Positions 3,281-42,071 of a stretch of DNA of 64,000 nucleotides are shown here, in pieces; position 1 is the stretch's first letter, and each line of letters starts with the position of its first letter. This stretch comes from an uncultured Candidatus Saccharibacteria bacterium. Its GTDB lineage: Bacteria; Patescibacteriota; Minisyncoccia; Phycocordibacterales; DATGWK01. The DNA lies in contig CAYRZH010000001.1 in assembly GCA_964428845.1 (NCBI GenBank), positions 204,445 to 268,444 of the forward strand. Direction: 5' to 3'. A program made the translations under genes and the position numbers. The notes below the pieces were generated by a model, which was not told the origin of the DNA, made no database searches, and worked only from the letters and a program-made list of their open reading frames with translations.

Positions 3281-3964
3281 ATGGGGAATAGCGGGCCAAA
3301 ACCAAAAGGCAAAATAAAGATTAAATGGTCCTCAAATTTTGCCTATGCCATTGGGCTTATTGCCACAGACGGAAACCTTTCTCCAAGTGGTCGTCATATA
3401 GTCTTTACATCTAAGGACTTTGAACAAATAAATAATTTCAAGAAGATTCTACGTTTAACAAATAAAATAGGGAAAAAGGGAAATGGTAGTAGTAAGGAGA
3501 AAAAATATTATGTCTTGCAATTTGGAGACGTCCTATTTTATTCATTTCTCGGGAAAATAGGCATATCTCCTGCAAAATCCAAAACCATAGGCCCTATTCA
3601 AGTTCCAGATAAATTCTTTTTTGATTTTCTAAGGGGATGTTTTGATGGCGATGGGTGCAGTTATAGTTATTGGGATAAGCGTTGGAAATCCAGCTTTCTT
3701 TTCTATATTTCCCTAGCTTCCGCGAGCGAACCTTTTATTTCTTGGGTTAGAAAAAAAGTAAAGCAGTTTGTGGGCGTATCTGGCCACGTTAGCAAACTAA
3801 AAAATGCTTCAGGTTTTCAATTGAGATATGCAAAAAACGATGCAAAGAAGATTGTTTATGAAATGTACAGAAAACCTAATAGTGTTTTCTTGAAAAGGAA
3901 AAAGTTGAAAATCAACAGATCTTTGGCTATTATGAGCCAATTCCCCAAAAGACGACTAAAGTGA
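3281..3964 (+). CDS. LAGLIDADG homing endonuclease, free-standing, very AT-rich
   Basis: Two LAGLIDADG motifs: YAIGLIATDGNL and FLRGCFDGDGCS. Own promoter-like TTGAGG-17-TACAAT lies upstream. The gene ends 16 nt before tRNA-Leu. Confidence 0.8.
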   Translation: MGNSGPKPKGKIKIKWSSNFAYAIGLIATDGNLSPSGRHIVFTSKDFEQINNFKKILRLTNKIGKKGNGSSKEKKYYVLQFGDVLFYSFLGKIGISPAKSKTIGPIQVPDKFFFDFLRGCFDGDGCSYSYWDKRWKSSFLFYISLASASEPFISWVRKKVKQFVGVSGHVSKLKNASGFQLRYAKNDAKKIVYEMYRKPNSVFLKRKKLKINRSLAIMSQFPKRRLK

Positions 3965-3979
3965 TTTGGTAGGATAAAT

Positions 3980-4061
3980 GCGCGGGTGTTGTAATTAGTA
4001 GCCAAGCACGCTTGAGGTGCGTGTGCCGTAAGGCGTGGAGGTGCAAGTCCTCTCCCGCGCA
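3980..4061 (+). tRNA. tRNA-Leu (anticodon GAG), type II with long variable arm
   Basis: Acceptor GCGCGGG/CCCGCGC, 3-bp D-stem with 11-nt loop as in E. coli tRNA-Leu, anticodon arm CACGC-TTGAGGT-GCGTG, 13-nt variable arm, T-arm GGAGG-TGCAAGT-CCTCT. Confidence 0.8.
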
Positions 4062-4079
4062 CAGTTCTTGTTTTTATAT

Positions 4080-4154
4080 GGTGCCTATGGTGTAACGGTT
4101 AACACTGGAGCTTGTGGAGCTCTCGATACCGGTTCGATTCCGGTTAGGCACCCA
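4080..4154 (+). tRNA. tRNA-His (anticodon GTG) with G-1
   Basis: G-1 + GTGCCTA acceptor pairing with TAGGCAC, anticodon loop TTGTGGA, T-arm ACCGG-TTCGATT-CCGGT, discriminator C. Confidence 0.8.
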
Positions 4155-4288
4155 CGGTTTGACAGAATGCTTAAAAAGTTATATCGTCTAAGACAGAAAG
4201 GTCCTCTTACTATTTCGGTGTCGTGATAAAAGCATGTCGACACATGCACGACTACGCTCCACACTTGGAGTGTTGAGGGGATTGAAAA

Positions 4289-4676
4289 ATGAAGATCCGC
4301 GTCAATTTCCAGGTTAGATGCAAGAATATGAGATGCATTCCGGGCTATAAGGCCAAAGAGACTGAGGGGGAAGATGTTTGGTGGGGGAAGTGACTTCTCG
4401 GGTATCATCAATTCTCCCGCAATACCGCGTGTGGGGGAGATTATTTTTATCACTGACAAGACCACCTTATGGCCTGGAATCGTTGTTGTTGAAAATGTGC
4501 ATTATTTTCTGGAGGGAGGAATTCTTAAGCCTGAGCTTGAATGCAACGACAGTGTCATCGATCTCAGTCGATATGCCAATATTCCCTGGATGTCATCATG
4601 GTCCGGTGTGGAAAAGTGGTTCCGTGATATCGAAAGGGTACTGGGCGAAGTGGGGTTCAGAGAGGAAGAGGAATAG
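4289..4676 (+). CDS. Hypothetical protein, possibly frameshifted: ORF 4289-4393 continues in +1 frame as 4374-4676; acidic C-terminus
   Basis: Two overlapping ORFs would read as one ~130-aa protein if a +1 shift occurs near 4375. No recognisable motif. Confidence 0.2.
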
Positions 4677-4751
4677 TCATTAGAGAAAACTGTCCTTGTA
4701 TCTGATTCGGCAAGTGCCCAACCAGGTCCATTCAATTGAAAGGAGTAAGCC

Positions 4752-5399
4752 GTGGGTATCGGGACAAATATTTTCGGCTCTTTTCTCACATTGAATTTGG
4801 CAAATCGTCGCCGGCGGGGAATGGCTATGTTCGGACACAAAAAGCCTGATTCAGCCGCACGTATTTTGGGTAGGGGAACGACCGACCGCTTCAAACTCAT
4901 CGACGAGTTCGAGGTCGTCGTGCCGATGGATTATGTTCACGCCACCTGTCTCTCTGATCTTGCGAGGGATTTCGGACACATGATCTCCCCTTTTTACCCT
5001 GTATTGACTGACGACAACTACAGAAACGTGACGACCCGCATGGAGCCAGGGGAAAGATTTGTGGCAAAGATTTTTCACATTGTTGGGCTGGAAACTTCTT
5101 TTGCCTGTCTGGGTTTGCTTGATCGGGAGAGAGCCATTCTGGCCGGGGCCCAGGGGCTGGCTCTCGTTTTTCGGGTGGCGAAGGACAGACTACCTCCCGA
5201 TCTCTGGACAGTTTCTTTCGACAGACCAGACGCATTGTTCTTCGATAGCCACAACGGCTGTCACCGGGTGCCGACCATTGGGCCATCCAGACAAAATCCC
5301 GGCAAGGGAGAGTTCCACTCCGGCTTCTTTGAACCCTTCGAGGGGGATAAGGGTTGGGATGCTCGCTTCTGTCTTCTCTGTCTTGTTCGTCAAGGGTAG
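4752..5399 (+). CDS. Uncharacterized protein, family member P2 (G+C-rich cassette gene)
   Basis: GTG start 6 nt after AAAGGAG. Core FEVVVPMDYVHAT...YPVLTDDNYRNVTTRMEPGERFVAKIFHIVGLETS...AILAGAQGLAL...LWTVSFDRPDAL ... FCLLCL aligns with P3. Confidence 0.5.
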   Translation: MGIGTNIFGSFLTLNLANRRRRGMAMFGHKKPDSAARILGRGTTDRFKLIDEFEVVVPMDYVHATCLSDLARDFGHMISPFYPVLTDDNYRNVTTRMEPGERFVAKIFHIVGLETSFACLGLLDRERAILAGAQGLALVFRVAKDRLPPDLWTVSFDRPDALFFDSHNGCHRVPTIGPSRQNPGKGEFHSGFFEPFEGDKGWDARFCLLCLVRQG

Positions 5400-5417
5400 A
5401 TTTTCTAAGTGTTCCCG

Positions 5418-5452
5418 GCGGCCCCGCGCTCGCGCTCGGGGTCTTTCTTTTA
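5418..5452 (+). terminator. Rho-independent terminator (CCCCGCGC-TCGC-GCTCGGGG + TCTTTCTTTT)
   Basis: GC-clamp hairpin plus T-tract. Shares the GCGCTCGGGG half with the terminator at 19231. Confidence 0.6.
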
Positions 5453-5579
5453 TAAATAATGATTTTAAGGATGGGTAAAACACAAGTATGTAGATGTTGG
5501 TGCGTTTGTCTGTTTAAACTTGGTTTCAACTTCCTGATACTGCGGCACCCACAATTTTTCTTCTGATATACTTTTCCTA

Positions 5580-6209
5580 ATGGTTGAAAGCGCTGAATTT
5601 GGTGTAAAAAAAGATCAACTCCCAGACGACAAATTAAACAGTATTATAGAAAAATACTGCGCCTCCTTGGTGGTTCCAAAAGATAAACCAAAGAAACAAT
5701 TTTTTCTTTGCCCAGTCGGCCTTATTGGGTCTGGCAAGACAACGGTTTTAAAGCCTTTGGCCGAAAAATTGAATCTTGTGCGTATATCTGGAGATGAAAT
5801 TAGGAAGATACTTTATGACCTGGGTTTTGATTATGATCGAACGTGGGAGATAGGGAGTATGGTTGTTGAAAGATATGCCAGAGAAGGATACAGCATTGCT
5901 CACGATACTGATTGTGCTACTCCAAAAACTATTGAGGCGATAAATAAACTCTCTAAGGAATTGGGTGCCCAGGTAGTATGGGTGCACGTCAACCCTCCAG
6001 AAGAATTTATTTTAAATAAGTTAAGGAAATATAAACACACATGGCTATATCGTGACGGTGAACATGCCATATCCAATTATTTAAGCCGAAAAAAAGTGCA
6101 CGAAAATTTACCAATGAATTTTCTTTATTCGTTTGATACATCTAAACCCAATCTCGACGAACAAATAGAACAAGCTTCGGAAGTCATTTTAAACAAGACC
6201 CAATTTTAA
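5580..6209 (+). CDS. P-loop NTPase / small kinase-like protein (Walker A GLIGSGKTT), AT-rich
   Basis: Walker A motif and ~210-aa size typical of AAA_33/zeta-toxin-like or nucleoside-kinase-like proteins. Family not assignable by eye. Confidence 0.55.
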   Translation: MVESAEFGVKKDQLPDDKLNSIIEKYCASLVVPKDKPKKQFFLCPVGLIGSGKTTVLKPLAEKLNLVRISGDEIRKILYDLGFDYDRTWEIGSMVVERYAREGYSIAHDTDCATPKTIEAINKLSKELGAQVVWVHVNPPEEFILNKLRKYKHTWLYRDGEHAISNYLSRKKVHENLPMNFLYSFDTSKPNLDEQIEQASEVILNKTQF

Positions 6210-6365
6210 TGTCTTTAGCCAGCCATAACTCCTCTTTTTATAAAATCAATAGATTCTCTCATAAGAATCTATTGATCATATTCGAGGGATGTGTATGATG
6301 AGAACAGAATTAATTTATGGGCAAATAAGGTTTTAACCCCGACTGAAATCAACAGGAGCATAGAG

Positions 6366-6581
6366 ATGAAAGCCGCAAGCTTGTCCCACCGTCAATGGTT
6401 TACTCGAGAGGGGCCTGATCGTCGCGTTTACGAGAGACTCCCTGGCCTTCCGGAGATTGTAGAGGGGGTCATGGCGATTCCAGTCCGACCGATTACGCCT
6501 ACTGTAAGACAACCAGGCTACTACATTCCAGCGGATGAATCGGTCGAAGTATGTCCTTCGAGATGTGTTCGGGTCGCATAA
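6366..6581 (+). CDS. Small hypothetical protein (72 aa) in a moderately G+C-rich patch
   Basis: CAGGAG SD 8 nt upstream of ATG. No recognisable motif. The opposite-strand ORF 6333-6611 is an alternative. Confidence 0.2.
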   Translation: MKAASLSHRQWFTREGPDRRVYERLPGLPEIVEGVMAIPVRPITPTVRQPGYYIPADESVEVCPSRCVRVA

Positions 6582-6633
6582 GGGCGTCATCGCAGGGGGG
6601 CAGAATGCCACCCTTTTTTCTTAGCCAAAATAG

Positions 6634-6765
6634 TATTTATGGACACGACGGGAGTTGAACCCGCAGTATTTAGTTGGTAAAACAAAATACCTAAACCGTT
6701 AGCGTGCCCATGACGCGATATACCACTCCGCGCCTAGGCAGACTCTAACAAAGACACATTCAAAT
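6634..6765. repeat. 132-bp direct repeat, copy 1 (tRNA/tmRNA-3'-end-like: reverse strand reads GCGGGTTCAACTCCCGTCGTGTCCA)
   Basis: 130/132 identical to 8095-8226. Contains a T-arm-like GGGTTCAACTCCC and a D-arm-like GAGTGGTATAT. Confidence 0.7.
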
Positions 6766-6901
6766 ATTTATTAAGTATACCCACCCCTCATCCCACCGCC
6801 AATCTTTCTGGATTTTTGTGACAGTTTGGTTCTTGTAGTTAGTGTTCGGTAAACAGTTAATGCAGCTTGTACCCCCCATTTTCCTAGGGTATAATTTCCT
6901 T

Positions 6902-7312
6902 ATGAAAAAAATAATCATAATTATTATTGCAATCGTCGTTGTTGTTGGTGGGGTTTGGTTTTATAAAAATAATGTGACAAGAACAAATATGAGCCCAAAA
7001 GAAACATACAAAGTAATTAACGACGAGTTGGCAAGGACGAAGAGTTTTGATGAATATGTTGCCGTCATGCTAAAGTATACCTCCTCAAAAAGCGATAACT
7101 CTGAGTTCAAAGATATGGTTGCAAACATGGACGATACGGAGAAAGAGAATTTTTTTAAATACTTACAAGAAAACAACATTATCCCCACTGACGCTCAATT
7201 ATCAGAGAAACTGACTGATAGCGAGCATGCAACTGTGAGCTGGAATGATTCCGATAACAAGACCAAAAGTATTGATATGGAAATAGACGGCGGTTCTTGG
7301 AAGATTAAGTAA
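6902..7312 (+). CDS. Membrane-anchored hypothetical protein (single N-terminal TM helix, Lys/Asp-rich ectodomain)
   Basis: MKKIIIIIIAIVVVVGGVWFY N-terminus; AT-rich; lies between the 132-bp repeats. Confidence 0.45.
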   Translation: MKKIIIIIIAIVVVVGGVWFYKNNVTRTNMSPKETYKVINDELARTKSFDEYVAVMLKYTSSKSDNSEFKDMVANMDDTEKENFFKYLQENNIIPTDAQLSEKLTDSEHATVSWNDSDNKTKSIDMEIDGGSWKIK

Positions 7313-7583
7313 CTCTAAATACTCCCTTTTTGGGGTCCGGGTAGGGTTAAAAAAGAACCGAATTAAGCTAAAACTGCTATACTTTGCATGTCAGAAGTGT
7401 AGATCGTCGCATCGTTCCTTTTCTTAAATATAGTTCTGATTTCCTCTACGACGGCACCCAAATGATTTTGAATAAACACATATCAACTTGGTCTAGTTTT
7501 GCGTAACTCCTTTTCCAGTTTTGTTTTTGCTTTAAAAAATCTCTAAATCTAAAAAGAATACACCACAAAGAAAGGAGATCGAC

Positions 7584-7973
7584 ATGGATCTTTCGGTGGT
7601 CATGGCTCGCCGAATTGTTACGACAGCTCTTGGTTATGTCGGCACACCTTATAGTTGGGAGGAGTTTAATTGTGTTCACTTTATAAGAAAGGTATATCAG
7701 GATGTTGGAATTGTTTTTCCTCGGCTTGTTAAAGAGATGGATCCTCCTGCAGATTTCCATCTTTCAGAGGAAGAGTTCGAAGAAATGCCGCTTGGTCGGT
7801 CTGTGTTTTTTAAAAGAAAAACTAGCAATCTACCCAGGAGTTGGACTCACATTGCTATTATTGTTTCTCCAAATGAATTAGTTCATTGTGCTCGCCGTCT
7901 GGGGTTTGTAGTTGTGACGCCGAAGTTAGAATTCCTCGAGACATACGCACTCACCCCAAAACCACTCTCATGA
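7584..7973 (+). CDS. NlpC/P60 (C40) family cell-wall peptidase
   Basis: GTPYSWEEFNCVHFIRKVY (Cys of the catalytic dyad) and a downstream His (THIAIIVSPNELVHCARR). Confidence 0.6.
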   Translation: MDLSVVMARRIVTTALGYVGTPYSWEEFNCVHFIRKVYQDVGIVFPRLVKEMDPPADFHLSEEEFEEMPLGRSVFFKRKTSNLPRSWTHIAIIVSPNELVHCARRLGFVVVTPKLEFLETYALTPKPLS

Positions 7974-8094
7974 GGGTGGTTTTTTATAATGTGATAGAAT
8001 TTTTTGCTGGGGCTAGAGCAACAAGATGTGGATTTTTACGCAGAATTGGAGGTTTATTATTCTCGGGTATAGCGACTTTCCTTCTCGTATAGAA

Positions 8095-8226
8095 TATTTA
8101 TGAACACGACGGGAGTTGAACCCGCAGTATTTAGTTGGTAAAACAAAATACCTAAACCGTTAGCGTGCCCATGACGCGATATACCACTCCGCGTCTAGGC
8201 AGACTCTAACAAAGACACATTCAAAT
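8095..8226. repeat. 132-bp direct repeat, copy 2
   Basis: 130/132 identical to 6634-6765. Followed by a bidirectional terminator CCGCCTCGAAAGGCGG at ~8248-8270. Confidence 0.7.
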
Positions 8227-8517
8227 CTTTTTTAAGAAAAGATAAATACAAAAACCGCCTCGAAAGGCGGCTTTTGCGATATTCTGTCTTACCAACCTCT
8301 GAATTATATATAACTCTCTCTCACTGTCAAAAAAAGACCGCCCCTTCCCGACGGTTTTTCTGGGACCCAAACTCACCAATATGAAAAATATGCAAAAATA
8401 TTCTCTTCCGACAATTGGGGGAAGGTAATTTGACAAATCTGTAAAATAGTGTAAACTCCCGTCCAGAACATTCGTGGCTTGTGGCCACAATAGCCGATCT
8501 TTCAATGGAGAACATGG

Positions 8518-9000
8518 ATGAACTCGGGAACAAACCTCGACGATAAGTCATCTTCGACTGATGGTAGTTGGTTCCTTTTCAACTTCGTGATCGTTGCTCT
8601 CATTATTTTGGCATTGGGCATCTCTGTCCCATCCTGCCGTCGGTACGCACAGAATGAGAGTGTCCGTATCCAGACCAAAGAGGTAGCCTTGAGGTTGGAC
8701 ACCCAGACTACCGAGGCCGGTGTCTATGTGAGGGTGCCGGAGGAGGAATTGCCTGACACCGATCTGTGGGGAACCAAACTCCGGGTTCAGTACGCGCAGG
8801 GTGGGGTGGCGGAGACGATCAGAGTCACCAGTGCCGGGCGTGACAAGTTGTTCGGGACCACCGACGACATCTCTTCCTACTGCCTTTCTACCAACCTCAA
8901 GGGGATTGGCACAGGTCTTCGAGACAATGCCGAGGAGGCCTCACGCAATGTCGCCAAGGGTCTCGTCGAGGGGGTCAAGGAAGGTCTCAAGAAGAAGTAA
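8518..9000 (+). CDS. GspG-like pseudopilin / type IV pilin-like protein on a G+C-rich segment; N-terminal prepilin motif degenerate
   Basis: Hydrophobic N-terminal helix (FLFNFVIVALIILALGISVPSCRRYAQNESVRIQTKEVAL) like pilin alpha1. C-terminal DLWGTKLRVQY...IRVTSAGRDKLFGTTDDI resembles the GspG signature (DPWG..Y.Y....SLG.DG..GG..DDI). Confidence 0.45.
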   Translation: MNSGTNLDDKSSSTDGSWFLFNFVIVALIILALGISVPSCRRYAQNESVRIQTKEVALRLDTQTTEAGVYVRVPEEELPDTDLWGTKLRVQYAQGGVAETIRVTSAGRDKLFGTTDDISSYCLSTNLKGIGTGLRDNAEEASRNVAKGLVEGVKEGLKKK

Positions 9001-9404: not shown

Positions 9405-11729
9405 ATGAGCCAAATTAAAACTTACAGAATAAAAGGAATGCACTGTGCTTCGTGCGCGGGCATCATCGAAAGGACTTTGAGGAAGATACAAGGGGTCCAG
9501 TCTGCTGAAGTCAATTATGGTACCGAAAAAGCGAAGATAGTTCTTGATGAGTCAAAAACAAGTGTACGAGAACTTTCGGGGAAAATAGAGCCACTCGGCT
9601 ATTCTCTTTCTTTGGATCAAGAAAATCCACATAGTCACAACCCCCAGTCGGCTGACGAAATGGGAATGTCCGCCGATGAGCATAGCGGACATCTCGGAAT
9701 CAGTCAGTCAAAAAAAGAGAAGCTCGCCGAAGTTGCCAGTATGAAGACCAAGGTAATTTCTTCCATTCCTCTTGCCGCCGTCTCAATCTTTGTGATGGTT
9801 TGGGAAATTCTCATCAGGTATGGAGTGGCGACAGAGATGAGTGATATTGCCGAGGAATTTTTTCATCACCTCCTGCCTCTTATGGCGACCTATACACTCT
9901 TTGTGGTGGGTAAGCCCTATCTTCTAGGTTTCTTTAGGTTTCTCCGATACGGCAAGGCAAATATGGATACACTGATCGGTATTGGAACTACCGCCGCCTT
10001 TTTGTACAGCTTCGCAATAACCGCTTTCGAAGAAACACTCCGCCCTTTTATAAACGTCGACTATCAGTACTACGACGTGACGATCGTGGTTGTCACCTTC
10101 ATTGCTCTCGGCAAGTATCTTGAGGCACGCTCAAAGATAAAGACTGGTGATGCTATAGAAAAACTTCTTAATCTTCAAGCCAAAACAGCTTTGGTCGTTC
10201 GAGATGGGAAAGAAGTAGAGATTCCAGTAAATGATGTAAAACACGGAGATTTGATAATCGTAAAACCAGGGGCAAAGATTCCGGTAGACGGTCTCATTGT
10301 GGAGGGAGGCTCTTTTGTCGATGAGTCCATGGTTACTGGGGAGCCAATGCCTGCCCAGAAAAAGGTCGGCGATGGTGTGGTATCCGGAACCATCAATACA
10401 ACCGGCTCGTTTACATTCAAGGCTACAAAAGTCGGGTCCGAGACTTTGCTCGCCCAGATCATAAAGATGGTCGAGGACGCCCAAGGAAGCAAGGCACCTA
10501 TCCAGGCGCTTGCGGATAAGATCTCGGCAGTTTTTGTGCCTATCGTCCTAGTGATCGCATTTCTCACTCTCGGCGCATGGCTCGTTGTCGGCTCGCAGTA
10601 TCTAGGATTCTCTCAAGCCCTTTCATTTGGTCTTGTTTCTTTTGTAGGAATTCTTGTGATCGCATGCCCATGTGCTCTCGGTCTTGCCACACCTACGGCA
10701 ATCATTGTCGGGGTTGGTAAAGGGGCGAAAGAAGGGATTCTTATCAAAGACGCAGCTACACTTGAGAAACTTCATAAGGTAAACACACTCGTCGTCGATA
10801 AGACGGGAACTATTACCAAGGGCAAGCCAACGCTCGTCGATATAGAGAATCTATCAAAATTTAAAGAAGAAGAACTTGTCTCAATACTCACCTCGCTTGA
10901 GAAGAAGTCAGAGCATCCGATCGCACATGCTATTGTCGATTATGCGCGCACAAAGAATATACCGATATCCGACGTTTCGGGTTTCGAAAGTATTCGTGGT
11001 GGGGGACTTAAGGGAACGATCGGCAATACAGAGTACTTTGTCGGTAGTGCGAAGTTTATAACCAACTTAAGAATTCCTTTTGATATTACGAGACTGGAAG
11101 AGTTTACAGCACAAGGCAAGACACCGGTCATTCTTGCTACAAAAGAAAAAGTTCTTGCTTTTGTGATGGTGGCCGACGAGATAAAAAAGGAATCTGTTGC
11201 GGCGATAAAAGATCTAAAGGACCTTGGAATCAATGTAGTCATGCTTACTGGTGATGATGAGAAAGCTGCGAAGTACGTAGCGTCTCTTGTCGGGATAGAT
11301 GATGTGGTCGCCCATGTGCTTCCTGAAGATAAGTTGAAAAAAATTCAGGAACTCCAATCGAGAGGTCGGGTGGTTGCTATGGCTGGTGATGGTGTAAATG
11401 ACGCACCAGCTCTTGCCCAGGCCGATGTGGGTATTGCCATGGGAACTGGAACAGATGTGGCGATCGAGTCAGCCGGCATCACACTTCTTGGTGGTGATAT
11501 TTCAAAACTTGTAAAAGCTATCAGACTTTCGAAGATTACCATGCGAGGGATCAAGCAAAATCTTTTCTGGGCATTTATCTACAACATTGTCGGCATACCA
11601 CTTGCAGCAGGAGCTTTGTATCCGGTCTTCGGATGGCTCTTGAACCCCGTCTTTGCGGGTTTTGCCATGGCGATGTCGTCGGTGTCTGTGGTGTCGAACT
11701 CGCTTCGTATTAAAGCTAAAAAAATATAA
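9405..11729 (+). CDS. copA: Copper-translocating P1B-type ATPase with N-terminal HMA domain
   Basis: [11 protein letters not shown] (CxxC), CPC ([11 protein letters not shown]), [17 protein letters not shown]. Confidence 0.9.
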
Positions 11730-12161
11730 TGACCAAACTCTTCTCATTACTAATTATCACGAGTATCCTAGTAATAGGGGTTTTGGATTTACCTCAATGA
11801 ATCATGGAGCTGATCATACTACCGGTTGCATTGCTTCAGTTGTAAACAATACTCCATGTCCTGAAAACATTGTGGAGATGTCTGTCCATCACATACAGGC
11901 ATTCGTTTCATTCTTCAGTGTGGTTCCGTCAATTCCGTTTATCTTCTTGCTCGCACTTCTGTTCGCAGTATTTCTTGGTACGAGATTTCTTTATATAAAA
12001 CAGCAGAATTTACTTTCGATCAACCTAGGATTATTGCGGGTCCAGCATGGTCCCGAACGCCAACTAAGTCGTCCACGGAAAATTACTCGCTGGCTTTCAT
12101 TATTTGAAAATAGTCCTTCATTGCATAGGATTTCCATTACTATTTCTAATCTCAAAAACCT

Positions 12162-12362
12162 ATGCAAACAAAAAAATCTAAAGGCAGTAAAAAATATAAA
12201 ATTATCGATCCTGCGGTGGCATTCGACCTTGTCTGCGGAATGGAGCTTGATTCAGACAGTATTAAGGCAAGCGCAGACTACAAGGGCAAAACCTACTATT
12301 TTTGTGCCATCCACTGCAAGAATCACTTCGTAGCTGATCCTGTGAAGTATGCAGGAGAGTAA
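12162..12362 (+). CDS. YHS/TRASH-domain small metal-binding protein
   Basis: VCGMELD...GKTYYFCAIHCKNHF matches the YHS-domain cysteine pattern. The overlapping 226-aa ORF 11653-12333 is probably non-coding in the overlap. Confidence 0.6.
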   Translation: MQTKKSKGSKKYKIIDPAVAFDLVCGMELDSDSIKASADYKGKTYYFCAIHCKNHFVADPVKYAGE

Positions 12363-12385
12363 ATTATTAATCTAATAACAAAAAC

Positions 12386-13030
12386 ATGAACAACAATCAA
12401 AACAACAAAATCTTATACGGTATCGGTGGAATCGTAATCGGAATTCTCCTTGTTTCGGTCCTCACTCCAATGTTTCGCTATGGTGGCTATGGAATGATGA
12501 ACTGGGGAAGTAATTCGGCGTACGAGCAAAGAGTGGTTAGAAACAGACAAATTGCCAGCACAATCGATAAGCATTTCATTGAGCAGATGATTCCTCATCA
12601 TGATGGAGCAATTGCTATGGCAAACCTCGCACTCCAAATGGCAAAACGTCCGGAGATTAAAATCTTAGCAACATCCATTATTGCGGCCCAGACGGCAGAG
12701 ATTCAAGACATGAACGGTTGGTATAAGGATTGGTTTGGAGCGACTGTTCCGAGAGTAGGCGCGGGAATGATGAGTGGCGGCATGATGTCGCAGAGTGGTA
12801 TGCATATGGGCGGGCAGGAGGATATGAAAGCCCTAGAAAATGCCGCAGACTTTGATAAGGCATTTATCGAGCAAATGATTCCGCATCATCAGTTGGCAAT
12901 CATGATGGCGAATATGCTTCAGTTCGGAACAAACAGGCCTGAGATGCAGCAGCTCGCGAAGAACATTATCTCTTCTCAGTCAAAAGAAATTCAGCAAATG
13001 CAGACTTGGTATACGCTATGGTATAAATAA
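12386..13030 (+). CDS. DUF305-family protein (ferritin-like, copper-resistance associated), internally duplicated
   Basis: Two repeats of FIEQMIPHH..AI.MAN. Confidence 0.65.
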   Translation: MNNNQNNKILYGIGGIVIGILLVSVLTPMFRYGGYGMMNWGSNSAYEQRVVRNRQIASTIDKHFIEQMIPHHDGAIAMANLALQMAKRPEIKILATSIIAAQTAEIQDMNGWYKDWFGATVPRVGAGMMSGGMMSQSGMHMGGQEDMKALENAADFDKAFIEQMIPHHQLAIMMANMLQFGTNRPEMQQLAKNIISSQSKEIQQMQTWYTLWYK

Positions 13031-13047
13031 ATATTCAATTACTAACT

Positions 13048-14079
13048 ATGACTACACAAACACAAAAATACACCTTCCATGTCCATGGTATGCATTGCAA
13101 TTCCTGTGTTCTCCTGACCGAAAGTGTTCTTGGTGATCTCCCCAATATCACTCATGTCAAATCAAGTCTAAAAAAACATTCGGTAGAGGTTATCGGAGAC
13201 TTTGGCAATAAGACACCGGAGCAGATTGCAGAAGAGCTTACTCTTCCACTAAAGTCTCATGGCTACAGTGTTTCAGTCGAAAGGAAGAGACATGACGCCA
13301 AATGGAGTGATTTTAAGATTGCGGTCCCGGTCGCACTCGGCTTTGCCGCGCTTTTCGTGGTACTGCAGAAAATGGGGATCGTGAATCTAGTCAGTGCCGG
13401 TAGCGTTACCTACGGTACGGCATTTGTTATCGGTATAATCGCCTCGCTTTCAACTTGCATGGCGGTGGTCGGAGGTCTGGTCCTCTCGATGTCTGCCACT
13501 TTCGCCAGAGAAGGGGACAGGGTTCGACCACAACTCATGTTTCATGCGGGACGGATAGCCTCATTCTTTGTACTTGGAGGTGTGATAGGGGCGATAGGAT
13601 CGGCCTTCACGCTCAATACTTCTGCAACGTTCATCTTGAGTTTTTTGGTAGGGATCGTAATGCTCATCCTCGGCATCAATCTTCTGGATATTTTCCACTG
13701 GGCCAAGAAACTTCAACCATCCATGCCGAAGTTTATCGCCAAACATGCCCATGGAGTTTCAAAATTCAACCACACTCTCACACCGGTTCTTGTGGGTATC
13801 GCAACATTTTTCCTGCCATGTGGCTTTACTCAATCAATGCAACTCTATACACTTACGACCGGAAGTTTCTTGCGAGGTGGCTTGACCATGCTAGCTTTTG
13901 CCCTGGGGACACTCCCGGTCCTGGCACTTATTAGTTTCAGTTCATTTAGTATTCAAAAGAGTTCTGGGTCCGGAATATTCTTCAAGACTGCCGGGTTGAT
14001 TGTGATTTTGTTTGCCCTTCTCAACCTTATCAATAGCCTGGTGGTTATCGGGGTCGTGCCACCAGTATTTGATTTCTAG
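13048..14079 (+). CDS. HMA-domain (MHCNSC) protein fused to a polytopic membrane domain (DsbD/CcdA- or TauE-like permease)
   Basis: N-terminal HMA CxxC. At least 6 hydrophobic segments with conserved Cys (STCMAV, FFLPCGF). Confidence 0.55.
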   Translation: MTTQTQKYTFHVHGMHCNSCVLLTESVLGDLPNITHVKSSLKKHSVEVIGDFGNKTPEQIAEELTLPLKSHGYSVSVERKRHDAKWSDFKIAVPVALGFAALFVVLQKMGIVNLVSAGSVTYGTAFVIGIIASLSTCMAVVGGLVLSMSATFAREGDRVRPQLMFHAGRIASFFVLGGVIGAIGSAFTLNTSATFILSFLVGIVMLILGINLLDIFHWAKKLQPSMPKFIAKHAHGVSKFNHTLTPVLVGIATFFLPCGFTQSMQLYTLTTGSFLRGGLTMLAFALGTLPVLALISFSSFSIQKSSGSGIFFKTAGLIVILFALLNLINSLVVIGVVPPVFDF

Positions 14080-14095
14080 TATAATAATTCAATTT

Positions 14096-14482
14096 ATGAA
14101 GACAACCGTTATTTCTTTGGTCATAGCCGCAATACTTATCGTCGGGGCTTTCATGATTGCCCGAGGAGATTTTTCAAGAACTGGCCAGCCGGCAAACAAC
14201 ATCAGTGTTGTCGATGGGAAACAAATCATAGTGATCACGGCTAAAGGGGGGTACAAGCCACGACAAAGCGTGGCCAAAGCGGGGATTCCTACGATCATTC
14301 GTTTTAATACTAATGGCACTTTTGATTGCTCTTCTTCAGTTCGTATTCCAAGTATGAATATTAGTCAGATTTTGCCACGTTCTGGATCTACGGACATAGA
14401 TATCGGTAGTGGCACACTCGGAGTACTCAAAGGGTCGTGCGGTATGGGGATGTATCCGTTTGAAATTGTATTTGAGGGGTAA
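14096..14482 (+). CDS. Membrane-anchored cupredoxin-like protein (putative copper-binding)
   Basis: Single TM, then a beta-rich domain with Cys/Met/His candidates (FDCSSSVRIP ... GSCGMGMYPFE). Confidence 0.35.
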   Translation: MKTTVISLVIAAILIVGAFMIARGDFSRTGQPANNISVVDGKQIIVITAKGGYKPRQSVAKAGIPTIIRFNTNGTFDCSSSVRIPSMNISQILPRSGSTDIDIGSGTLGVLKGSCGMGMYPFEIVFEG

Positions 14483-14528
14483 AAAGGGGGTAGTTTTTTC
14501 AAAGATAGATTCCCAGCGGGTCGAGATA

Positions 14529-15050
14529 TCAATACTCGATATTTCTTGCTCCAATCAACCCTCTAGAAAAGGGGTGCTTAACCTCCATCATTTCTGTTAC
14601 CAAATCCGCTCTTTCCAAAAATTCTCTCGGGCAATAACGGCCCGTCATGATCAAATGATCAAGCTTGGGAAGATATTTGCAGATAAAATCACTGACAGAT
14701 TCTTTAGTGAGGAGCCCGAGTGAAAGGGCAACCCATATCTCATCAAGGATCAAAATATTCCATACCTTTCTTTCAACCTCTTTTGCGGAATATGCTAAGG
14801 CATCTTTGGCTGCCTTCACGTGATCTTCGAAAGGTATTTTATCGTTTTCTTTAAAAACAAAACCTTTTCCTTTTTTTGCAATCTTAAAATCCGGTGTGAT
14901 TTTTTTTGCGAGCTTATCTTCACCAGATTTCCAAGGTCCTTTTATAAACTGCACCATTAGGACTCTACTTCCATTTCCAACCGCCCTCATCGCCTGACCG
15001 ATAGCAGCTGTCGTTTTCCCTTTTCCGTTACCCGTAAAGATAATAAACAT
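14529..15050 (-). CDS. Cob(I)yrinic acid a,c-diamide / cob(I)alamin adenosyltransferase (CobA/BtuR family)
   Basis: MFIIFTGNGKGKTTAAIGQAMRAVG P-loop and ILILDEI. Sits 5 nt downstream of nrdJ. Confidence 0.8.
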   Translation of the reverse strand: MFIIFTGNGKGKTTAAIGQAMRAVGNGSRVLMVQFIKGPWKSGEDKLAKKITPDFKIAKKGKGFVFKENDKIPFEDHVKAAKDALAYSAKEVERKVWNILILDEIWVALSLGLLTKESVSDFICKYLPKLDHLIMTGRYCPREFLERADLVTEMMEVKHPFSRGLIGARNIEY

Positions 15051-15055
15051 GGTAG

Positions 15056-17371
15056 TTATATTGCTATTTCGCAGACACCACCCACACACGCAAGTTCTTT
15101 CTTGAGATCAAGCTCGTCAGTTTTTTCGTAAGTCACTATCTTCGAGTAGTCGATATGTTTCATACGTTCCGACAGTTCCAGATATTTTTTTTCATCGATA
15201 GCTTCATAGGGCGCCAGCTGATAGACGTGGTTGTCTCGCGGCAGGAAAGAGAGGCCGCCCACGATATCCCAATTTTTATAAATCCAGTTTGCCACCTCGA
15301 TCCATTCGTCATCTCCCACCGAGACAGTTACGGAAGGGTTGTGTTCGGTGTAGTTCGTCTTTACAATCTTCCAATATTCGAGCTGGTCTAGCGCGCTTAG
15401 ATCATCTTTAAAAATCGATCCTTCTGGGGCTTTGACTGGGAATTCGAGTACATAGGTGGTTGCCGATTCTTTGGGTTGGCCGATCTCTGGATGAAAGGGT
15501 ATTCCTTGATCCTTGAGCATCTTGAAAAGACCATCAGTCGCTGATATTCGAATTCTCCTTATATAGTATTGAGAGTGTCTTGGATGCATGCCAGAAGAGC
15601 AGTCGACCATCTGCGACAATGTCCCCGATGGTTTAACGCAGGTGATACACGTCGAAGGATTCACCCCGAATCTTTTAGAGTAAACTCGATTTATTTTTAA
15701 GGTCTCATCTTTTAGTTTTCTTAATACTTTTGGATTTCTTAAAATCTTTGAATCCCACTGGCCAGTTATCGAGACTCCGAGCAGGCGCTCGTTTTCACAT
15801 CTTTCCCTCCATTCCTTTGAGAGATAGGGGAAATTGGTTAGAGTGGCTTGATATGTGCCAAGTATTGTTGCCAGCCGAATCTTTTTCAAGAGGGAAGCTT
15901 CATCATCTTCGTCACGAGCGACGACTTCTGATAAATTACAAAATTGTTTCGATTGTAAAATAATCTCACCGCAAGGGTTTGTACCGATAGGACCGATGAT
16001 CGATGTTCCGGAAGAATCAAAATATCCTTCATATTTTTTTAAAGTCTCCAATCTTCTTTCTGGAAGGGTTTTGGCCAATGATCCGCGGTTGAAAATGCCT
16101 CTTTCGCCCGACCCAGACTTCATGAGCGCTGCCCACTCTTCAACAAACTCCGTATTTGATGGTTTTTGTATATAGACCGCAGAGTTGTTGGCGAGCATTC
16201 TTTGTGGCTCATTTACGTAAAAAGCACCCTTTTTTGCGTCTCGAATATCCACATCATCTAGATCTGACAAAGAAATCATAGCGCTACGTCTCACGCCTCC
16301 GGAGACAACACAATCGCCGATCATACAGATGATGTCGTGCACATCTATATTTCGCAATCTCTTCCCTTGGCGAGCAAGCATTTTTTCTCTGGTGAAGTCT
16401 AGCAATCTCTTCAAAGGTTCTGGTCCAGACGCCTTGCCTCCCATCGTTTTCAGGCGGGATCCGGCTGGGCGAAGTTCTGACAAATCAAAATCTATATCTT
16501 TACCTTCTGCCCAGGTCTTCATGCCTAGGGCTAGAGCGTCGGCCCAACCCTCTTTGTTGTCAGGAACTATATGTGTTGGAAGTTTTTTGCCGGTCTGAAG
16601 ATTTATCTGTGGGAACTTTTGAACATTTTGACTTTCCACAGACCAACCGGCGCCTGTGCCGCACATGGAGATATACATGATCTCGGCTAGATCCTGGAAG
16701 TTGGTCGGTGCAACATATGAACAATTGTACGCACAGACATTTGTTTTTTTTGCCGCGATCCCGGCAAACTGCAAGAGTCGCATTGAGGGCATGGCTCTCT
16801 GTTCAAGAATTCCTTCTCGGATTTCTTTATATTCAGATTCTTTTAGTTTTGTTCCAAGGTTTTCTTTCATGAAGCCCATATAACGGTCGACTGTCTCTAT
16901 CCAGGTCTCTCTGCGTTTCTCCTCATCGATCCAGCGAGAATAGCTGCGATAGTAAACAAATTCTCCAAGTGGATTTCTGAAATATTTTTTGCTGTCTTCG
17001 GAAAGTTTTCTTACTTTTGGAGGAACTTTTGTACCTTGAGCCCTAAGGCGGGCGCGTTTTTCGCGGTATAAAATATAGGCTTTTGCGGTTTTTACGTATT
17101 CGCTCAAGATGAGCTCTTTTTCTACCGTATCCTGTATACCTTCGACCGTCGGAACAAAGTTCTTGTATTTTTTTGTGATACGAAGTGCGTCCGCATAAAC
17201 CTTATTTGCCACCAGTTCGGCCTCCTTAAGCGAGCCTTCAGCCGAAGCGATCATCGCTTTGCGTATCGCGTTGACGATCTTCTGAATATCGAAAGGGACG
17301 ACCGACCCATCTCTTTTTTGAATACTTTTTACCACTGGCTCGACCATTAAGTTTCTTTTTTTTGGTGACAT
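15056..17371 (-). CDS. nrdJ: Class II (adenosylcobalamin-dependent) ribonucleotide reductase
   Basis: 771 aa; NPCGEI active-site motif; N-terminal ATP-cone-like region. Confidence 0.85.
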   Translation of the reverse strand: MSPKKRNLMVEPVVKSIQKRDGSVVPFDIQKIVNAIRKAMIASAEGSLKEAELVANKVYADALRITKKYKNFVPTVEGIQDTVEKELILSEYVKTAKAYILYREKRARLRAQGTKVPPKVRKLSEDSKKYFRNPLGEFVYYRSYSRWIDEEKRRETWIETVDRYMGFMKENLGTKLKESEYKEIREGILEQRAMPSMRLLQFAGIAAKKTNVCAYNCSYVAPTNFQDLAEIMYISMCGTGAGWSVESQNVQKFPQINLQTGKKLPTHIVPDNKEGWADALALGMKTWAEGKDIDFDLSELRPAGSRLKTMGGKASGPEPLKRLLDFTREKMLARQGKRLRNIDVHDIICMIGDCVVSGGVRRSAMISLSDLDDVDIRDAKKGAFYVNEPQRMLANNSAVYIQKPSNTEFVEEWAALMKSGSGERGIFNRGSLAKTLPERRLETLKKYEGYFDSSGTSIIGPIGTNPCGEIILQSKQFCNLSEVVARDEDDEASLLKKIRLATILGTYQATLTNFPYLSKEWRERCENERLLGVSITGQWDSKILRNPKVLRKLKDETLKINRVYSKRFGVNPSTCITCVKPSGTLSQMVDCSSGMHPRHSQYYIRRIRISATDGLFKMLKDQGIPFHPEIGQPKESATTYVLEFPVKAPEGSIFKDDLSALDQLEYWKIVKTNYTEHNPSVTVSVGDDEWIEVANWIYKNWDIVGGLSFLPRDNHVYQLAPYEAIDEKKYLELSERMKHIDYSKIVTYEKTDELDLKKELACVGGVCEIAI

Positions 17372-17540
17372 ATTTTATTTAGTTAATAAGTTAATTGATT
17401 ATGAAACTAGTATATCAAACGAATATAGTGAATTTCAAAAAAATAGGGGATAAAAATTTTCTGCGCGCCAAAGTGTTTGGTCTGTCAATTTGAGTTGCTC
17501 TGGAAGCTTGGTATACTACTATCAATAAATATCGAAATTA

Positions 17541-17845
17541 TGAAATCACCACTGCCACAAGAGGCGTATCATAGAAATGCTCATATCTATAAAATTCTTG
17601 CCAACTCAAAACGGCTTGAAATCCTAAATCTTCTGAAAAAGGGGGAACTTGGTGTCGAGCAACTGCTGAAAGTCACTAGATTATCCAAGGCAAATCTCTC
17701 CCAACACCTTGCGCTGTTGCGACACAATGGGCTGGTTCAAACAAGACGCGACGGTCTAAATATTTTTTACCGCATAGTTGACCCAAGAATTGTCGAACCT
17801 TGCAAAATTCTTCACAATTTGCGTCACAGACAGCTCGTGGTTTAG
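17541..17845 (+). CDS. ArsR/SmtB-family transcriptional regulator
   Basis: AHIYKILANSKRLEILNLLKKGELGVEQLLKVTRLSKANLSQHLALLRHNGLV wHTH. Promoter-like TTGAGT-16-TATACT upstream. Confidence 0.7.
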
Positions 17846-41226: not shown

Positions 41227-41252
41227 GGCATATTTCTTCTGCAGCGCTACTA

Positions 41253-41282
41253 TTGACTCGAGCACCGTTTGTATGATATAAT
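41253..41282 (+). promoter_or_regulatory. Promoter TTGACT-18-(TG)TATAAT of P3, followed by a conserved structured leader (stem GCACAG..CTGTGC, then GCTTC-TTCG-GAAGC just upstream of the SD)
   Basis: Promoter plus leader are ~85% identical to 42880-42990 upstream of P4. Confidence 0.45.
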
Positions 41283-41366
41283 TTCGCACAGAAAGAGTAT
41301 GGCACTGTGCTGTATTCTAGTTCTCTGAACCGCTTCTTCGGAAGCACAGCAAGAAAGGAAAATGTC

Positions 41367-42071
41367 ATGAGCGCGAAACGCGTGTGTGACATGAGCCCAA
41401 GAAACGTGTGTGACATGAGCTGTGGGGCGATGCATGAGTTTGCATTGGCCCTCGACAAGGCCGGTTTTACCGCTAGTCTTGTACAACAGGTCATCAACTC
41501 GGGTGGCAACAAGCTCGCGAGAGCAATGCGTGCTGCTCTCACAACAGGAGTCGTGGTGGATGACCGGTTCGAACTGGTCGACTCCTTCGATGTCGTTGTG
41601 CCCGACGGCTACGACCACGCAACCCGTTTGGGGACGTTCTGGAGAGAACACGGCGAAGAGTTCGATTGCTACAACCCCTCCATCACCGACGAGAACTACA
41701 GCGGAGCGACAAACAAACTCGTCCCTGGTCGGGGGTTCAGGGTGAAGGTTTTCCAGATCAGGGGGGTCGTGTCATCCGACGATTGCCTGGCTCACCTGCG
41801 TTCGCAGAAGGCTGTACTTGTTGGCGCCCAAGGTGCGAGTCTTGCCTACGAACAGGGCAAGAACATGCTACCAGTCAACCGGTGGTCAGTCTCCTTCGAT
41901 GATAAGGATGCGCTTTTGGAAGACCCCAGTGGCTGGCATTGGGTGCCGGACGTGCTCCGCCACTCGGACGGTAGCTTCAGGTTCAATCTTGGTCAGTTCG
42001 AGTTAAACTGGAACGACGGCTTCTGCCTTCTCTGCTTCTGCGGCTTTGAGCCCGAGTCCTCTGGCGCCTAG
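41367..42071 (+). CDS. Uncharacterized protein, family member P3 (G+C-rich cassette gene)
   Basis: FDVVVPDGYDHAT...YNPSITDENYSGATNKLVPGRGFRVKVFQIRGVVSSDDCLAHL...AVLVGAQGASL...RWSVSFDDKDAL...FCLLCF. Tandem 16-nt duplication near the N-terminus (VCDMS x2). Confidence 0.5.
   Translation: MSAKRVCDMSPRNVCDMSCGAMHEFALALDKAGFTASLVQQVINSGGNKLARAMRAALTTGVVVDDRFELVDSFDVVVPDGYDHATRLGTFWREHGEEFDCYNPSITDENYSGATNKLVPGRGFRVKVFQIRGVVSSDDCLAHLRSQKAVLVGAQGASLAYEQGKNMLPVNRWSVSFDDKDALLEDPSGWHWVPDVLRHSDGSFRFNLGQFELNWNDGFCLLCFCGFEPESSGA

Follow-up and report, generated by a model that had tools for sequence, protein, structure and literature searches.

A probable orphan homologue of CPR DGR target proteins in a compact unit within the variable 3' flank of a tRNA-His gene

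The variable (target) proteins of CPR DGRs were reportedly first described by Paul et al. in Nat Microbiol in 2017. The DGRs of the CPR are cellular, fall into a clade of their own and act on targets that lack recognisable domains (PMC5758913, PMC8144416); they constitute the "CPR set" of Wu et al. 2018 (PMC5758913) and the DGR clade 2 of Roux et al. 2021 (PMC8144416). For other DGRs, targets that lie remote from the rest of the system are also known (PMC5758913). In the complete systems of the family considered here, transcription of a template repeat downstream of the target gene gives an RNA that the DGR reverse transcriptase (RT) together with Avd copies with errors at adenines, and this cDNA replaces the final ~120 nt of the target, thereby re-randomising its ligand-binding surface. 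The window analysed here, a 64-kb stretch of DNA from a 269.7-kb contig of an ultra-small CPR (Patescibacteria) bacterium, contains a gene, P2 (4752..5399, + strand), which is probably an orphan or fossil DGR-target gene lying in a compact unit within the variable flank of tRNA-His. A sequence-only reading of the window had taken P2 for an anonymous "P" protein and thereby missed its identity: profile searches reveal it to be a homologue of the DGR variable proteins. What had been an anonymous "P cassette" hence becomes a recognisable orphan member of the CPR DGR-target family.

A profile built from P2 and its paralogue P-A matches 1022 representative proteins or clusters, 136 of them at E <= 1e-30, and none of the family representatives contains any Pfam model. 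The family was revealed by this profile search of representatives; word-indexed protein searches with P2 or with a 54-member alignment returned almost only the query. Likewise, searches of Pfam, NCBIfam and the PDB sequences gave no match for P2, the small ORF preceding it, or P1 and P-B, two other "P" genes. The homologous loci recovered come without exception from CPR MAGs (19/19), and in at least eight of the 19 the region downstream of the gene holds a template repeat, briefly duplicating the gene's C-terminus, together with ORFs for an Avd-like protein and an RT. Mismatches between the variable region and the template repeat occur exclusively at template adenines in three loci (L002, 16/16; L014, 15/15; L015, 12/12) and mostly so in two others (L009, 21/23; L005, 18/20), with adenine being the commonest mismatched template base in L007, L006 and L004. 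The presence of a template repeat, Avd-like gene and RT downstream, combined with the adenine-biased mismatches, identifies the family as DGR variable (target) proteins, the adenine-specific differences being established for the homologues and not for P2 itself. In the family alignment, the residues that vary are precisely those encoded by Asn (AAC) codons in the template repeats, and the length is otherwise fixed. We assign P2 to this CPR family of C-type-lectin-fold DGR variable proteins. The AF2 model of P2 (pLDDT 91.2) retrieves with Foldseek nearly exclusively CTLDs, albeit weakly, and displays a predicted C-type-lectin-like fold with the variable region at its C-terminus; P2 would be a ligand-binding protein. 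No family member was found in the IMG/VR contigs, leaving a viral origin unsupported.

P2 thus resembles the described CPR DGR variable proteins in belonging to the same sequence family, in being short (~200 aa) and lacking any recognisable N-terminal domain or Pfam match, in a C-terminus that aligns to variable regions which, in homologues, differ from their templates at adenines only, and in the cellular rather than viral location of the family. It differs from them in having no template repeat, Avd or RT within the 64 kb, in the atypical length of its variable region, and in standing alone behind a tRNA gene, with an unrelated small ORF before it. Mtd (Bordetella phage BPP-1) and TvpA are likewise DGR variable proteins of C-type-lectin fold, and the idea of a target far from its RT has a counterpart in the remote or orphan targets of Treponema denticola; P2 shows no detectable sequence similarity to solved structures, and it is much smaller than Mtd. 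The searches for the DGR machinery, which covered the 64 kb of the 269.7-kb contig, comprised tblastn in which two RTs and one Avd, all taken from homologous loci, served as queries, with no match at E < 0.2, and, for the template repeat, tblastn with a template-repeat peptide and blastn with both 3' ends (5151-5420 for P2), with none found in the 64 kb. The lack of an RT, Avd and template repeat in the window makes P2 either an orphan or a remote target, and its occurrence here without such machinery would be that of an orphan copy.

The P2 unit follows a conserved block with the order tRNA-Val / RluD / L19 / tRNA-Leu / tRNA-His. The tRNA-Leu(GAG) gene (3980..4062, + strand) is recognised by ARAGORN and by Rfam (38.5 bits) and is syntenic in L023, L026, L030 and L031; the tRNA-His(GTG) gene (4081..4154 with its CCA, otherwise ending at 4153, + strand) has an encoded G-1 and CCA, and its final 8 nt are GGCACCCA (4147-4154). 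A candidate sigma-70-like promoter, TTGACA-17-TATCGT (4159..4187, + strand), begins just 5 nt 3' of tRNA-His, and transcription of the small-ORF/P2 unit presumably starts from it; it matches the consensus at 10/12 positions in a scan of a kind that is no proof of function. Downstream of it the ORF list gives two overlapping small ORFs on the + strand (4290-4394, 34 aa; 4374-4676, 100 aa), each preceded by a plausible ribosome-binding site, which would fuse through a 1-nt shift in the run GGTGGGGGAAG and represent either two genes or a single gene with a 1-nt frameshift at that run. These ORFs have no homologues in Pfam or NCBIfam, or by tblastn against all fetched loci. P2 itself encodes 215 aa from a GTG start with AAGGAG upstream, while the NCBI annotation has a 190-aa form starting at the ATG at 4827. 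It is trailed by a GC-rich hairpin (5420-5443; -17 kcal/mol by RNA folding) and a T-tract reaching ~5454 (5420..5454, + strand), which look like an intrinsic terminator closing the unit. This hairpin may also correspond to the one that trails DGR variable regions, and similar hairpins follow P-A, P1 and the cassette shared by L014 and L018. The block 4155-5455 would form a self-contained transcription unit of promoter, small ORF(s), P2 and terminator hairpin, the promoter and terminator functions being predicted from their sequence patterns. The order of a possibly frameshifted small gene, P2 and a terminator had been proposed from the sequence alone; the order and the hairpin with its T-tract are indeed there, the frameshift being possible.

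Relatives were collected with a tRNA-Leu/tRNA-His DNA pattern, which gave distant ones (L020-L022), and as RluD homologues, which gave closer ones (L023-L032), the nearest having 72% identity in RluD. In all relatives found (L020, L023, L026, L030 and L031) synteny breaks at the 3' end of tRNA-His, and the alignments lose all similarity right after the tRNA. In L023 the gene for a large serine recombinase overlaps the 3' end of tRNA-His, and with L026 and L031 synteny resumes only at 22973. The flank 3' of tRNA-His is, by these comparisons, variable across relatives. As the ~19-kb segment 4155-22970 replaces differing gene sets that lie 3' of tRNA-His in relatives, P2, within the first 1.3 kb of this segment, would sit in a recombination hot spot. 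A position of the block directly 3' of tRNA-His, as the sequence-only reading had it, is upheld both by the promoter-like site 5 nt beyond the tRNA and by the synteny with five relatives that ends there. A comparison with relatives in search of an empty site had also been suggested: the flank differs in all of them, no empty site was recovered, and no relative shares the right-hand flank within 19 kb. Tblastn with one serine and one tyrosine recombinase found no match in the window, and no integrase or recombinase ORF occurs within 4155-7460.

Islands that target tRNA genes are well known, as are integrase-less derivatives that are mobilised in trans (cis-mobilisable elements; e.g., Williams 2002 NAR). 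The P2 block is like them in lying immediately 3' of a tRNA, with a suggestive short repeat of its terminus at the presumed far end, in the hypervariability of this flank in relatives, and in having neighbouring or homologous cassettes with clear repeats of a tRNA 3' end around them; it is unlike them in that its repeat measures only 9 nt, no integrase was found, the unit is only 1.4 kb long and no empty site came to light, which makes it a candidate member at most. The octamer GGCACCCA occurs in the window on the + strand at 4147, 5544 and 7453 and on the - strand at 5962 and 41940. The copies at 4147 and 5544 are identical over 9 nt, GGCACCCAC, so that the word at 5544..5552 (+ strand) directly repeats the tRNA-His terminus and one further base; it is intergenic, lies ~90 nt past the terminator and is a candidate for a distal att core. 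The second downstream copy (7453..7460, + strand) is likewise intergenic, and that at 5962-5969 on the - strand lies inside an AAA_33 kinase gene. The sequence continues from 5553 as AATTTTTCTTCTG and from 7461 as AATGATTTTG.

Five copies of GGCACCCA compare with 1.19 +/- 1.22 expected, a number that 1/100 shuffles reached. Just 0.12% of the G+C-rich 8-mers of the window have three or more further copies within 3.4 kb, and 1.05% of its G+C-rich 9-mers have another copy on their own strand no more than 1.5 kb away. The matches of 8-9 nt are hence nominally unusual (p about 0.001-0.01, and about 0.01 for the 9-nt repeat), and since the word, span and strand of the test were freely picked after viewing the sequence, so that the p values are nominal, they are no more than suggestive. 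Searches for longer degenerate att copies, with 22-nt and 13-nt patterns of the tRNA end allowing mismatches, found nothing beyond the 8-9-mer, and aligning the sequence ahead of each 8-mer, locally as well as anchored, revealed no extended tRNA similarity (anchored p = 0.27-0.51). A T-arm-like similarity that appeared in a MAFFT alignment was not significant and was rejected. The copies of the tRNA terminus that had been noted downstream are therefore real at 5544 and 7453; as att cores they are suggestive, on nominal p values of 0.001-0.01 and with no extension past 8-9 nt. The clustering of GGCACCCA downstream of the tRNA (nominally 0.1-1%) speaks against a hot spot alone and for a more specific history of insertion.

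Arrival of P2 as a small cassette, through recombination at the tRNA terminus, is plausible. In its most explicit form, which we regard as a serious possibility while holding it to be short of probable, 4155-5543, with the small ORFs, P2, the terminator and a tail of ~90 nt, would be a small integrase-less cassette inserted site-specifically into the 3' end of tRNA-His, with the core GGCACCCAC left at both ends and a recombinase encoded elsewhere acting in trans; the copy at 7453 would then mark a second, tandem island (5553-7452), and an empty site would read tRNA-His-GGCACCCAC-AATTTTTC. The 9-nt direct repeat at the tRNA terminus and past the terminator, the intergenic position of both downstream + strand copies and the nominal repeat probabilities of 0.1-1% are in its favour, as is the serine-recombinase element in the tRNA-His of L023. 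Further cases come from other cassettes. L018 shares this architecture: a 1147-bp P cassette, made up of flank, promoter, gene, hairpin and a ~115-nt tail and 100% identical to one in L014, begins inside the 3' end of tRNA-Ser, with a second CCGCAGT 4 nt past the cassette end. In L013 tRNA-Gln and, on the other side, a 21-nt repeat of the tRNA-Gln 3' end enclose an entire DGR cassette, and in the present window the P1 cassette is bordered by 18-29-nt repeats of the tRNA-Val 3' end. At least three P-type or DGR cassettes (L013, L018 and P1) have a tRNA 3' end as one boundary and its short repeat as the other, the tRNA-end repeats at homologous cassettes measuring 7-21 nt. A same-strand tRNA ending no more than 1.2 kb upstream of the P gene is present in 3/19 loci and at P2, against an estimated ~0.6 of 21 expected. 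T-arm-like relics precede the P promoters of L001 and L014/L018; in L001, Rfam gave no match in the DNA ahead of the P gene.

Against this stand the shortness of the repeat and its failure to extend, the post hoc choice of word, span and strand, the fact that, of the three nearby copies, one falls within an opposite-strand coding gene, the two recombinase queries without a match in the window, and the lack of an empty site among the relatives examined. Moreover, 15/19 family loci, and P-A as well, lie away from any tRNA, and in L004/L005 the cassette moved, or its flanks changed, with neither tRNA nor repeat. The generalisation that P cassettes target tRNA loci finds partial support. No mention of tRNAs was found in the DGR surveys consulted. 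As a broader and rather speculative conjecture, CPR DGR target genes might travel as integrase-less promoter-to-terminator cassettes, with or without RT and template repeat, into the extreme 3' ends of tRNA or tRNA-like genes via cores of 7-21 nt, seeding orphan or remote targets like P2, with a G+C-rich third-position composition unlike that of the host and of RT/Avd pointing to a separate mutational or selective regime. If general, the observations on bounding tRNA ends and on composition would tell how genes for hypervariable surface proteins spread and increase in number in organisms reliant on host attachment.

The orphan reading of P2 favoured here also has to be set against P2 being an active remote DGR target, with 5250-5384 rewritten in trans by a DGR elsewhere in the genome and the hairpin at 5420-5443 acting as the target-recognition structure. 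The segment in question (5250..5384, + strand, ending in HNGCHRVPTIGPSRQNPGKGEFHSGFFEPFEGDKGWDARFCLLCL) is the part of P2 that the family alignment equates with the variable region. Several family members have no nearby template repeat (L003, L010, L016-L019), and L018, which duplicates the L014 target exactly, variable region included, within the same MAG, is itself a plausible remote target; remote targets at distances of over 100 kb are on record (PMC5758913). P2 also retains the scaffold residues HRVP and CLLC and its model folds confidently. Set against this, the variable region, fixed in length in the family, has two insertions in P2, one of 5 aa in none of the other 53 members of the 54-member alignment and a second shared with 2 of those 53, so that a canonical template repeat could not serve P2. 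Further, of eight codons at former AAC positions only five still end in C, as read from the sequence, the remainder having drifted at the third position, and P2 matches any known template repeat over one 27-nt stretch only. We consider service from elsewhere in the genome less likely; given the insertions and the drift at former AAC codons, P2 is most likely a fossil or a paralogue of fixed specificity.

The unit had further been described as a G+C-rich cassette. The rise itself is measurable: G+C increases from 0.35-0.39 in the flanks to 0.45-0.48 (4200-4800) and 0.50-0.57 (4800-5450) and falls steeply after ~5455, with the P2 gene alone clearly exceeding the window mean (~0.45). This high G+C is concentrated at third codon positions (GC3) and is common to most family members in CPR hosts. 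The P genes have a GC3 of 0.53-0.81 in 8/10 loci examined, the RT and Avd genes of the same loci 0.22-0.47 and host genes 0.22-0.50; in most loci examined the target gene exceeds its own RT/Avd and the host genes by 0.2-0.5. With high GC3 common to most of the family, and RT/Avd host-like or lower, G+C richness is no evidence of recent insertion and is removed as an argument for it. If general, the GC3 contrast would provide a simple compositional flag for finding hypervariable target genes, and both it and the bounding by tRNA ends could merit a systematic survey. That P2 was never inserted at all, being long-resident, with its composition a family constraint, GGCACCCA a coincidence and the differences among relatives general CPR genome shuffling, would agree with the family-wide G+C richness, the negative extended repeat test, the distance of the nearest relatives (RluD <= 72% identity), and their rearrangements well beyond the site, as with the RNR block, which is elsewhere in L028, but is rendered improbable by a breakpoint that coincides exactly with the tRNA 3' end in each of five independent relatives, the nominal 0.1-1% probability of the 8-mer cluster and the clear precedents for cassette mobility in L018 and L013.

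The P2 unit had been paired with P1 (893-1495, beside tRNA-Val) as the second cassette of a single P family, a grouping that finds no support. P1 has no significant similarity to P2 (BLASTP E = 0.41) and does not match the family profile (hhalign E = 0.17, probability 0.4%), and its single-sequence AF2 model (pLDDT 39) is too poor for fold comparison; P1 and P-B were both rejected as family members on negative BLASTP and hhalign results. The true and only demonstrable paralogue of P2 in the window is P-A (41367..42071, + strand; tblastn, 41% identity, E = 1.45e-35), which is flanked by glyS and an M16 peptidase gene, with no tRNA adjoining and no template repeat or RT nearby. Its variable region is of canonical length and, compared with the heterologous template repeat of L009, shows 18/30 mismatches at template adenines.

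P2, the G+C-rich ORF 3' of tRNA-His, has no match in Pfam or NCBIfam, and a word-indexed search with it recovers only itself. Its sole clear paralogue within the window is P-A (41367-42071; 41% identity, tblastn 1.45e-35). A P2 + P-A profile run against 1.8 billion representative proteins recovered 1022 relatives (E <= 1e-30 for 136), and none of 54 sampled family members has a meaningful Pfam hit. Scanning species-representative genomes yielded 19 family loci, all from CPR/Patescibacteria MAGs, where ORF listing reveals a recurring order: downstream of the P gene come, in turn, a short copy of the gene's C-terminus (e.g. ADGNHRVPNVNRNSDGDFKFNLGNFENDWNDDNCLLCFC), an opposite-strand Avd-like ORF of four-helix type and a reverse transcriptase (RT). 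When the 3' end of each P gene, the variable region (VR), is aligned with its downstream copy, the template repeat (TR), the mismatches fall exclusively at adenines of the copy in loci L002 (16/16), L014 (15/15) and L015 (12/12), nearly all do so in L009 (21/23) and L005 (18/20), and adenine is the most frequently mismatched base of the copy in L007, L006 and L004. Such adenine-specific mismatches are the hallmark that defines diversity-generating retroelements (DGRs); hence, it is the P family that supplies CPR DGRs with their variable (target) protein. AlphaFold, given the family alignment, models P2 with confidence (pLDDT 91.2). The identity of P2 as a member of a DGR-target, lectin-fold family, orphaned within these 64 kb, is settled, and it is a new member of an already known class. 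CPR DGRs form a separate cellular clade, with targets that lack recognisable domains (PMC5758913, PMC8144416); in agreement with a cellular location, we found no P2-family members in IMG/VR viral contigs.

The window itself contains no RT, Avd or TR: tblastn with two RTs, one Avd and a TR peptide gave a sole match, to P-A's own VR, and the P2 and P-A 3' ends, used as blastn queries, had no further match in the window. Across a 54-member alignment the VR is fixed in length and varies at Asn (AAC) positions. The P2 VR carries a 5-aa insertion without counterpart in any other member of this alignment and a second insertion common to only two others. Length differences of this sort are neither created nor tolerated by template-driven rewriting. 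Further, in our reading of the sequence, the P2 codons at former AAC positions end in C in only five of eight cases. Because of these insertions, the eroded codon pattern and the lack of an RT, Avd or TR in the window, the likeliest status of P2 is that of a fossil or a fixed-specificity orphan. A private template repeat may instead serve it from elsewhere in the genome, the search having covered 64 kb of the 269.7-kb contig. The P-A VR, unlike that of P2, looks like the normal, diversified type, with 75% identity to the heterologous TR of L009 and 18 of 30 mismatches at template adenines.

The G+C content of P2 is accounted for as a trait of its family. P genes lie 5-25 points above the rest of their own locus in 16 of the 19 loci, and in eight of the ten examined by codon position the excess is at third positions: GC3 is 0.53-0.81 in those P genes versus 0.22-0.47 in the RT and Avd partners from the same cassettes and 0.22-0.50 in host genes, with L004 and L005 as the exceptions. 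Since high G+C is common across the family, composition is no argument for a recent arrival of P2. GC3-rich DGR targets present the reverse of the A+T bias usual in acquired DNA, and we found no mention of this contrast with RT/Avd and host genes in DGR surveys (PMC5758913, PMC8144416). The GC3-rich class in the window also takes in P1 (the ORF of the cassette beside tRNA-Val), the unrelated P-B, a prepilin-like ORF (42292-42738) and an ORF at 8518-9000. Besides DGR targets, high GC3 is also seen in several pilin-like or unknown accessory genes.

The sequence-only reading of the tRNA-His locus was largely correct. Both ARAGORN and Rfam call tRNA-Leu(GAG) at 3980-4062 and tRNA-His(GTG) at 4081-4153 (4154 with the encoded CCA), the latter with the exact 3' terminus GGCACCCA, CCA included. 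A promoter-like site, TTGACA-17-TATCGT (4159-4187), starts 5 nt 3' of tRNA-His, and the order claimed beyond it is borne out together with its coordinates: two overlapping small ORFs (4290-4394 and 4374-4676), P2 (4752-5399; GTG start with AAGGAG ahead, given by NCBI as a 190-aa form from 4827) and a GC hairpin with T-tract downstream of it (5420-5443). The small ORFs had been taken as one possibly frameshifted gene, and a 1-nt shift in GGTGGGGGAAG could join them; however, each has a plausible ribosome-binding site and no homologues of either were found. The island had also been described as G+C-rich: G+C is 0.35-0.39 in the flanks, 0.45-0.48 in the small ORFs and 0.50-0.57 in P2, with a sharp drop at ~5455, and since the window mean is ~0.45, P2 alone is really G+C-rich.

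Relatives located via RluD homologues and the DNA pattern of the tRNA pair place P2 in a variable flank anchored on tRNA-His. The block tRNA-Val(-)/RluD/L19/tRNA-Leu/tRNA-His is conserved in L023, L026, L030 and L031, and its L19/tRNA-Leu/tRNA-His part in the more distant L020 and L021. In each, similarity to the window ends at the last base of tRNA-His, which is followed by a cupin gene in L020, UCP032817-like genes in L026, a folate operon in L031 and PRiA4 and Fic genes in L030; in L023 a large serine recombinase gene (13244-14901) lies over the 3' part of the tRNA. Synteny with L026 and L031 first resumes at 22973, and P2 therefore opens a ~19-kb tRNA-anchored variable segment, as expected for an integration hot spot. 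The proposed insertion at tRNA-His accords with a variable flank that begins at the tRNA end, but none of the relatives, with RluD at <= 72% identity, is near enough to supply an empty site for the 1.4-kb cassette. L023, with the closest RluD (72%), encodes Resolvase, Recombinase and Zn-ribbon domains in its recombinase, with HTH and DUF5659 genes thereafter, and this region looks like an integrated element that would use tRNA-His as well.

Whether short copies of the tRNA terminus mark att cores is less clear-cut. The window holds five copies of GGCACCCA where 1.19 +/- 1.22 would be expected. Of the four copies outside the tRNA, three sit in the first 3.4 kb 3' of tRNA-His, and the copy at 5544 has 9 nt in common with the tRNA end. 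Empirically, 0.12% of the G+C-rich 8-mers of the window have at least three further copies within 3.4 kb, and 1.05% of its G+C-rich 9-mers recur within 1.5 kb on the same strand. However, chance recurrences in other parts of the window are also seen for further tRNA stretches of 9-11 nt, longer tRNA-end patterns give no match there even with mismatches allowed, and the sequence upstream of the GGCACCCA copies is no more tRNA-like than at random positions. Allowing for post-hoc choices, the clustering is suggestive of an insertion scar, and a cassette at tRNA-His with att boundaries and GGCACCCA(C) as their core is a possible but rather doubtful reading.

Cassettes elsewhere bear on the wider claim that P cassettes target tRNA loci. 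Two contigs of one long-read MAG carry, at 100% identity, a 1147-bp cassette made up of flank, promoter, gene, hairpin and ~115-nt tail (5592-6738 in both L014 and L018); in L018 it starts inside the 3' end of tRNA-Ser (..TCCTCCGCAGT|CAGTC), with a second CCGCAGT 4 nt beyond its end, and in L014 CCGCAGT precedes it. In L013 an entire DGR cassette (5469-8760) sits between tRNA-Gln and a 21-nt repeat of the tRNA-Gln 3' end, with further 5' and 3' tRNA fragments nearby. These sites offer direct evidence that DGR or DGR-target cassettes can duplicate or integrate at tRNA 3' ends. Within the window, stretches of 18-29 nt at 638-666 and 1587-1615 repeat the end of tRNA-Val (1745-1817, - strand) on its 3' side and enclose the ~920-bp P1 cassette (TTGACA-17-TACAAT promoter, ORF P1 with GC3 0.73, strong terminator); a ~130-bp G+C-rich remnant also lies between tRNA-Val repeats, and the closest relatives, L028 and L030, have at this position an UppS gene, which the window lacks. 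Ahead of their P promoters, L001 and L014/L018 carry T-arm-like relics; the one in L001 goes unrecognised in an Rfam search. In 3 of 19 loci, and for P2, a tRNA on the same strand ends no more than 1.2 kb ahead of the P gene, against a chance estimate of ~0.6 in 21. Set against the tRNA-end repeats bounding L013, L018 and P1, 15 of the 19 loci and P-A have no nearby tRNA, which speaks against a strict rule. The DGR cassettes of L004 (5806-8382) and L005 (5768-8329), which begin at the -10 box and end at the RT stop codon, are 87% identical, with unrelated flanking genes and no visible tRNA or terminal repeat. The tRNA-Val and tRNA-His cassettes had been assigned to one P family, which fails in that sequence and profile comparison could not demonstrate P1 as a P2 homologue; the single-sequence fold model of P1 was unusable for comparison. 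What deserves follow-up is the wider pattern of cassettes at tRNAs, together with the GC3 anomaly.

The tRNA cluster of the window and its relatives is also crowded with homing-endonuclease-type ORFs. The window has a LAGLIDADG ORF between L19 and tRNA-Leu (3281-3964) that is missing in L020, L026 and L031; between tRNA-Leu and tRNA-His, L030 has two HNH-like ORFs (3441-4542) and L023 a 1.8-kb insert (11424-13243); and in L001 a LAGLIDADG-like ORF directly follows tRNA-Glu (4825-5577). A CobA-like/ribonucleotide reductase (RNR)/HTH block follows tRNA-His at a distance of ~10 kb in the window (14532-17842) but lies upstream of AsnA-like/UppS/tRNA-Val in L028 (2814-6116; RNR 84% identical), which indicates rearrangement between close relatives.

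A 73-nt cloverleaf-like gene occurs at 6637-6709 (-) and 8098-8170 (-), neither copy being called by ARAGORN. It scores 30.5 bits against the Rfam tmRNA model, under the gathering score, matching only at both ends (the tRNA-like domain), with 13 nt in place of the ~310-nt mRNA part. The gene is duplicated with ~65 nt of upstream sequence (6632-6780 versus 8093-8240), the copies enclose two A+T-rich genes, and a G+C-rich ORF (6291-6581) with a hairpin lies directly 3' of the first copy. P-A belongs to a two-unit tandem array (41244-44468) whose units have a common promoter/leader (88% identical) and differ in their ORF, P-A in one and P-B (42985-43698) in the other. Each unit ends in a ~790-bp block, 99% identical, comprising a strong hairpin, a prepilin-like ORF of 148 aa and the initial ~45 nt of an M16 peptidase gene. 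The junction sequence is CTG(C/T)GC(T/C)ACT. The array resembles the product of a cassette exchange or duplication at a protein-coding gene's 5' end.
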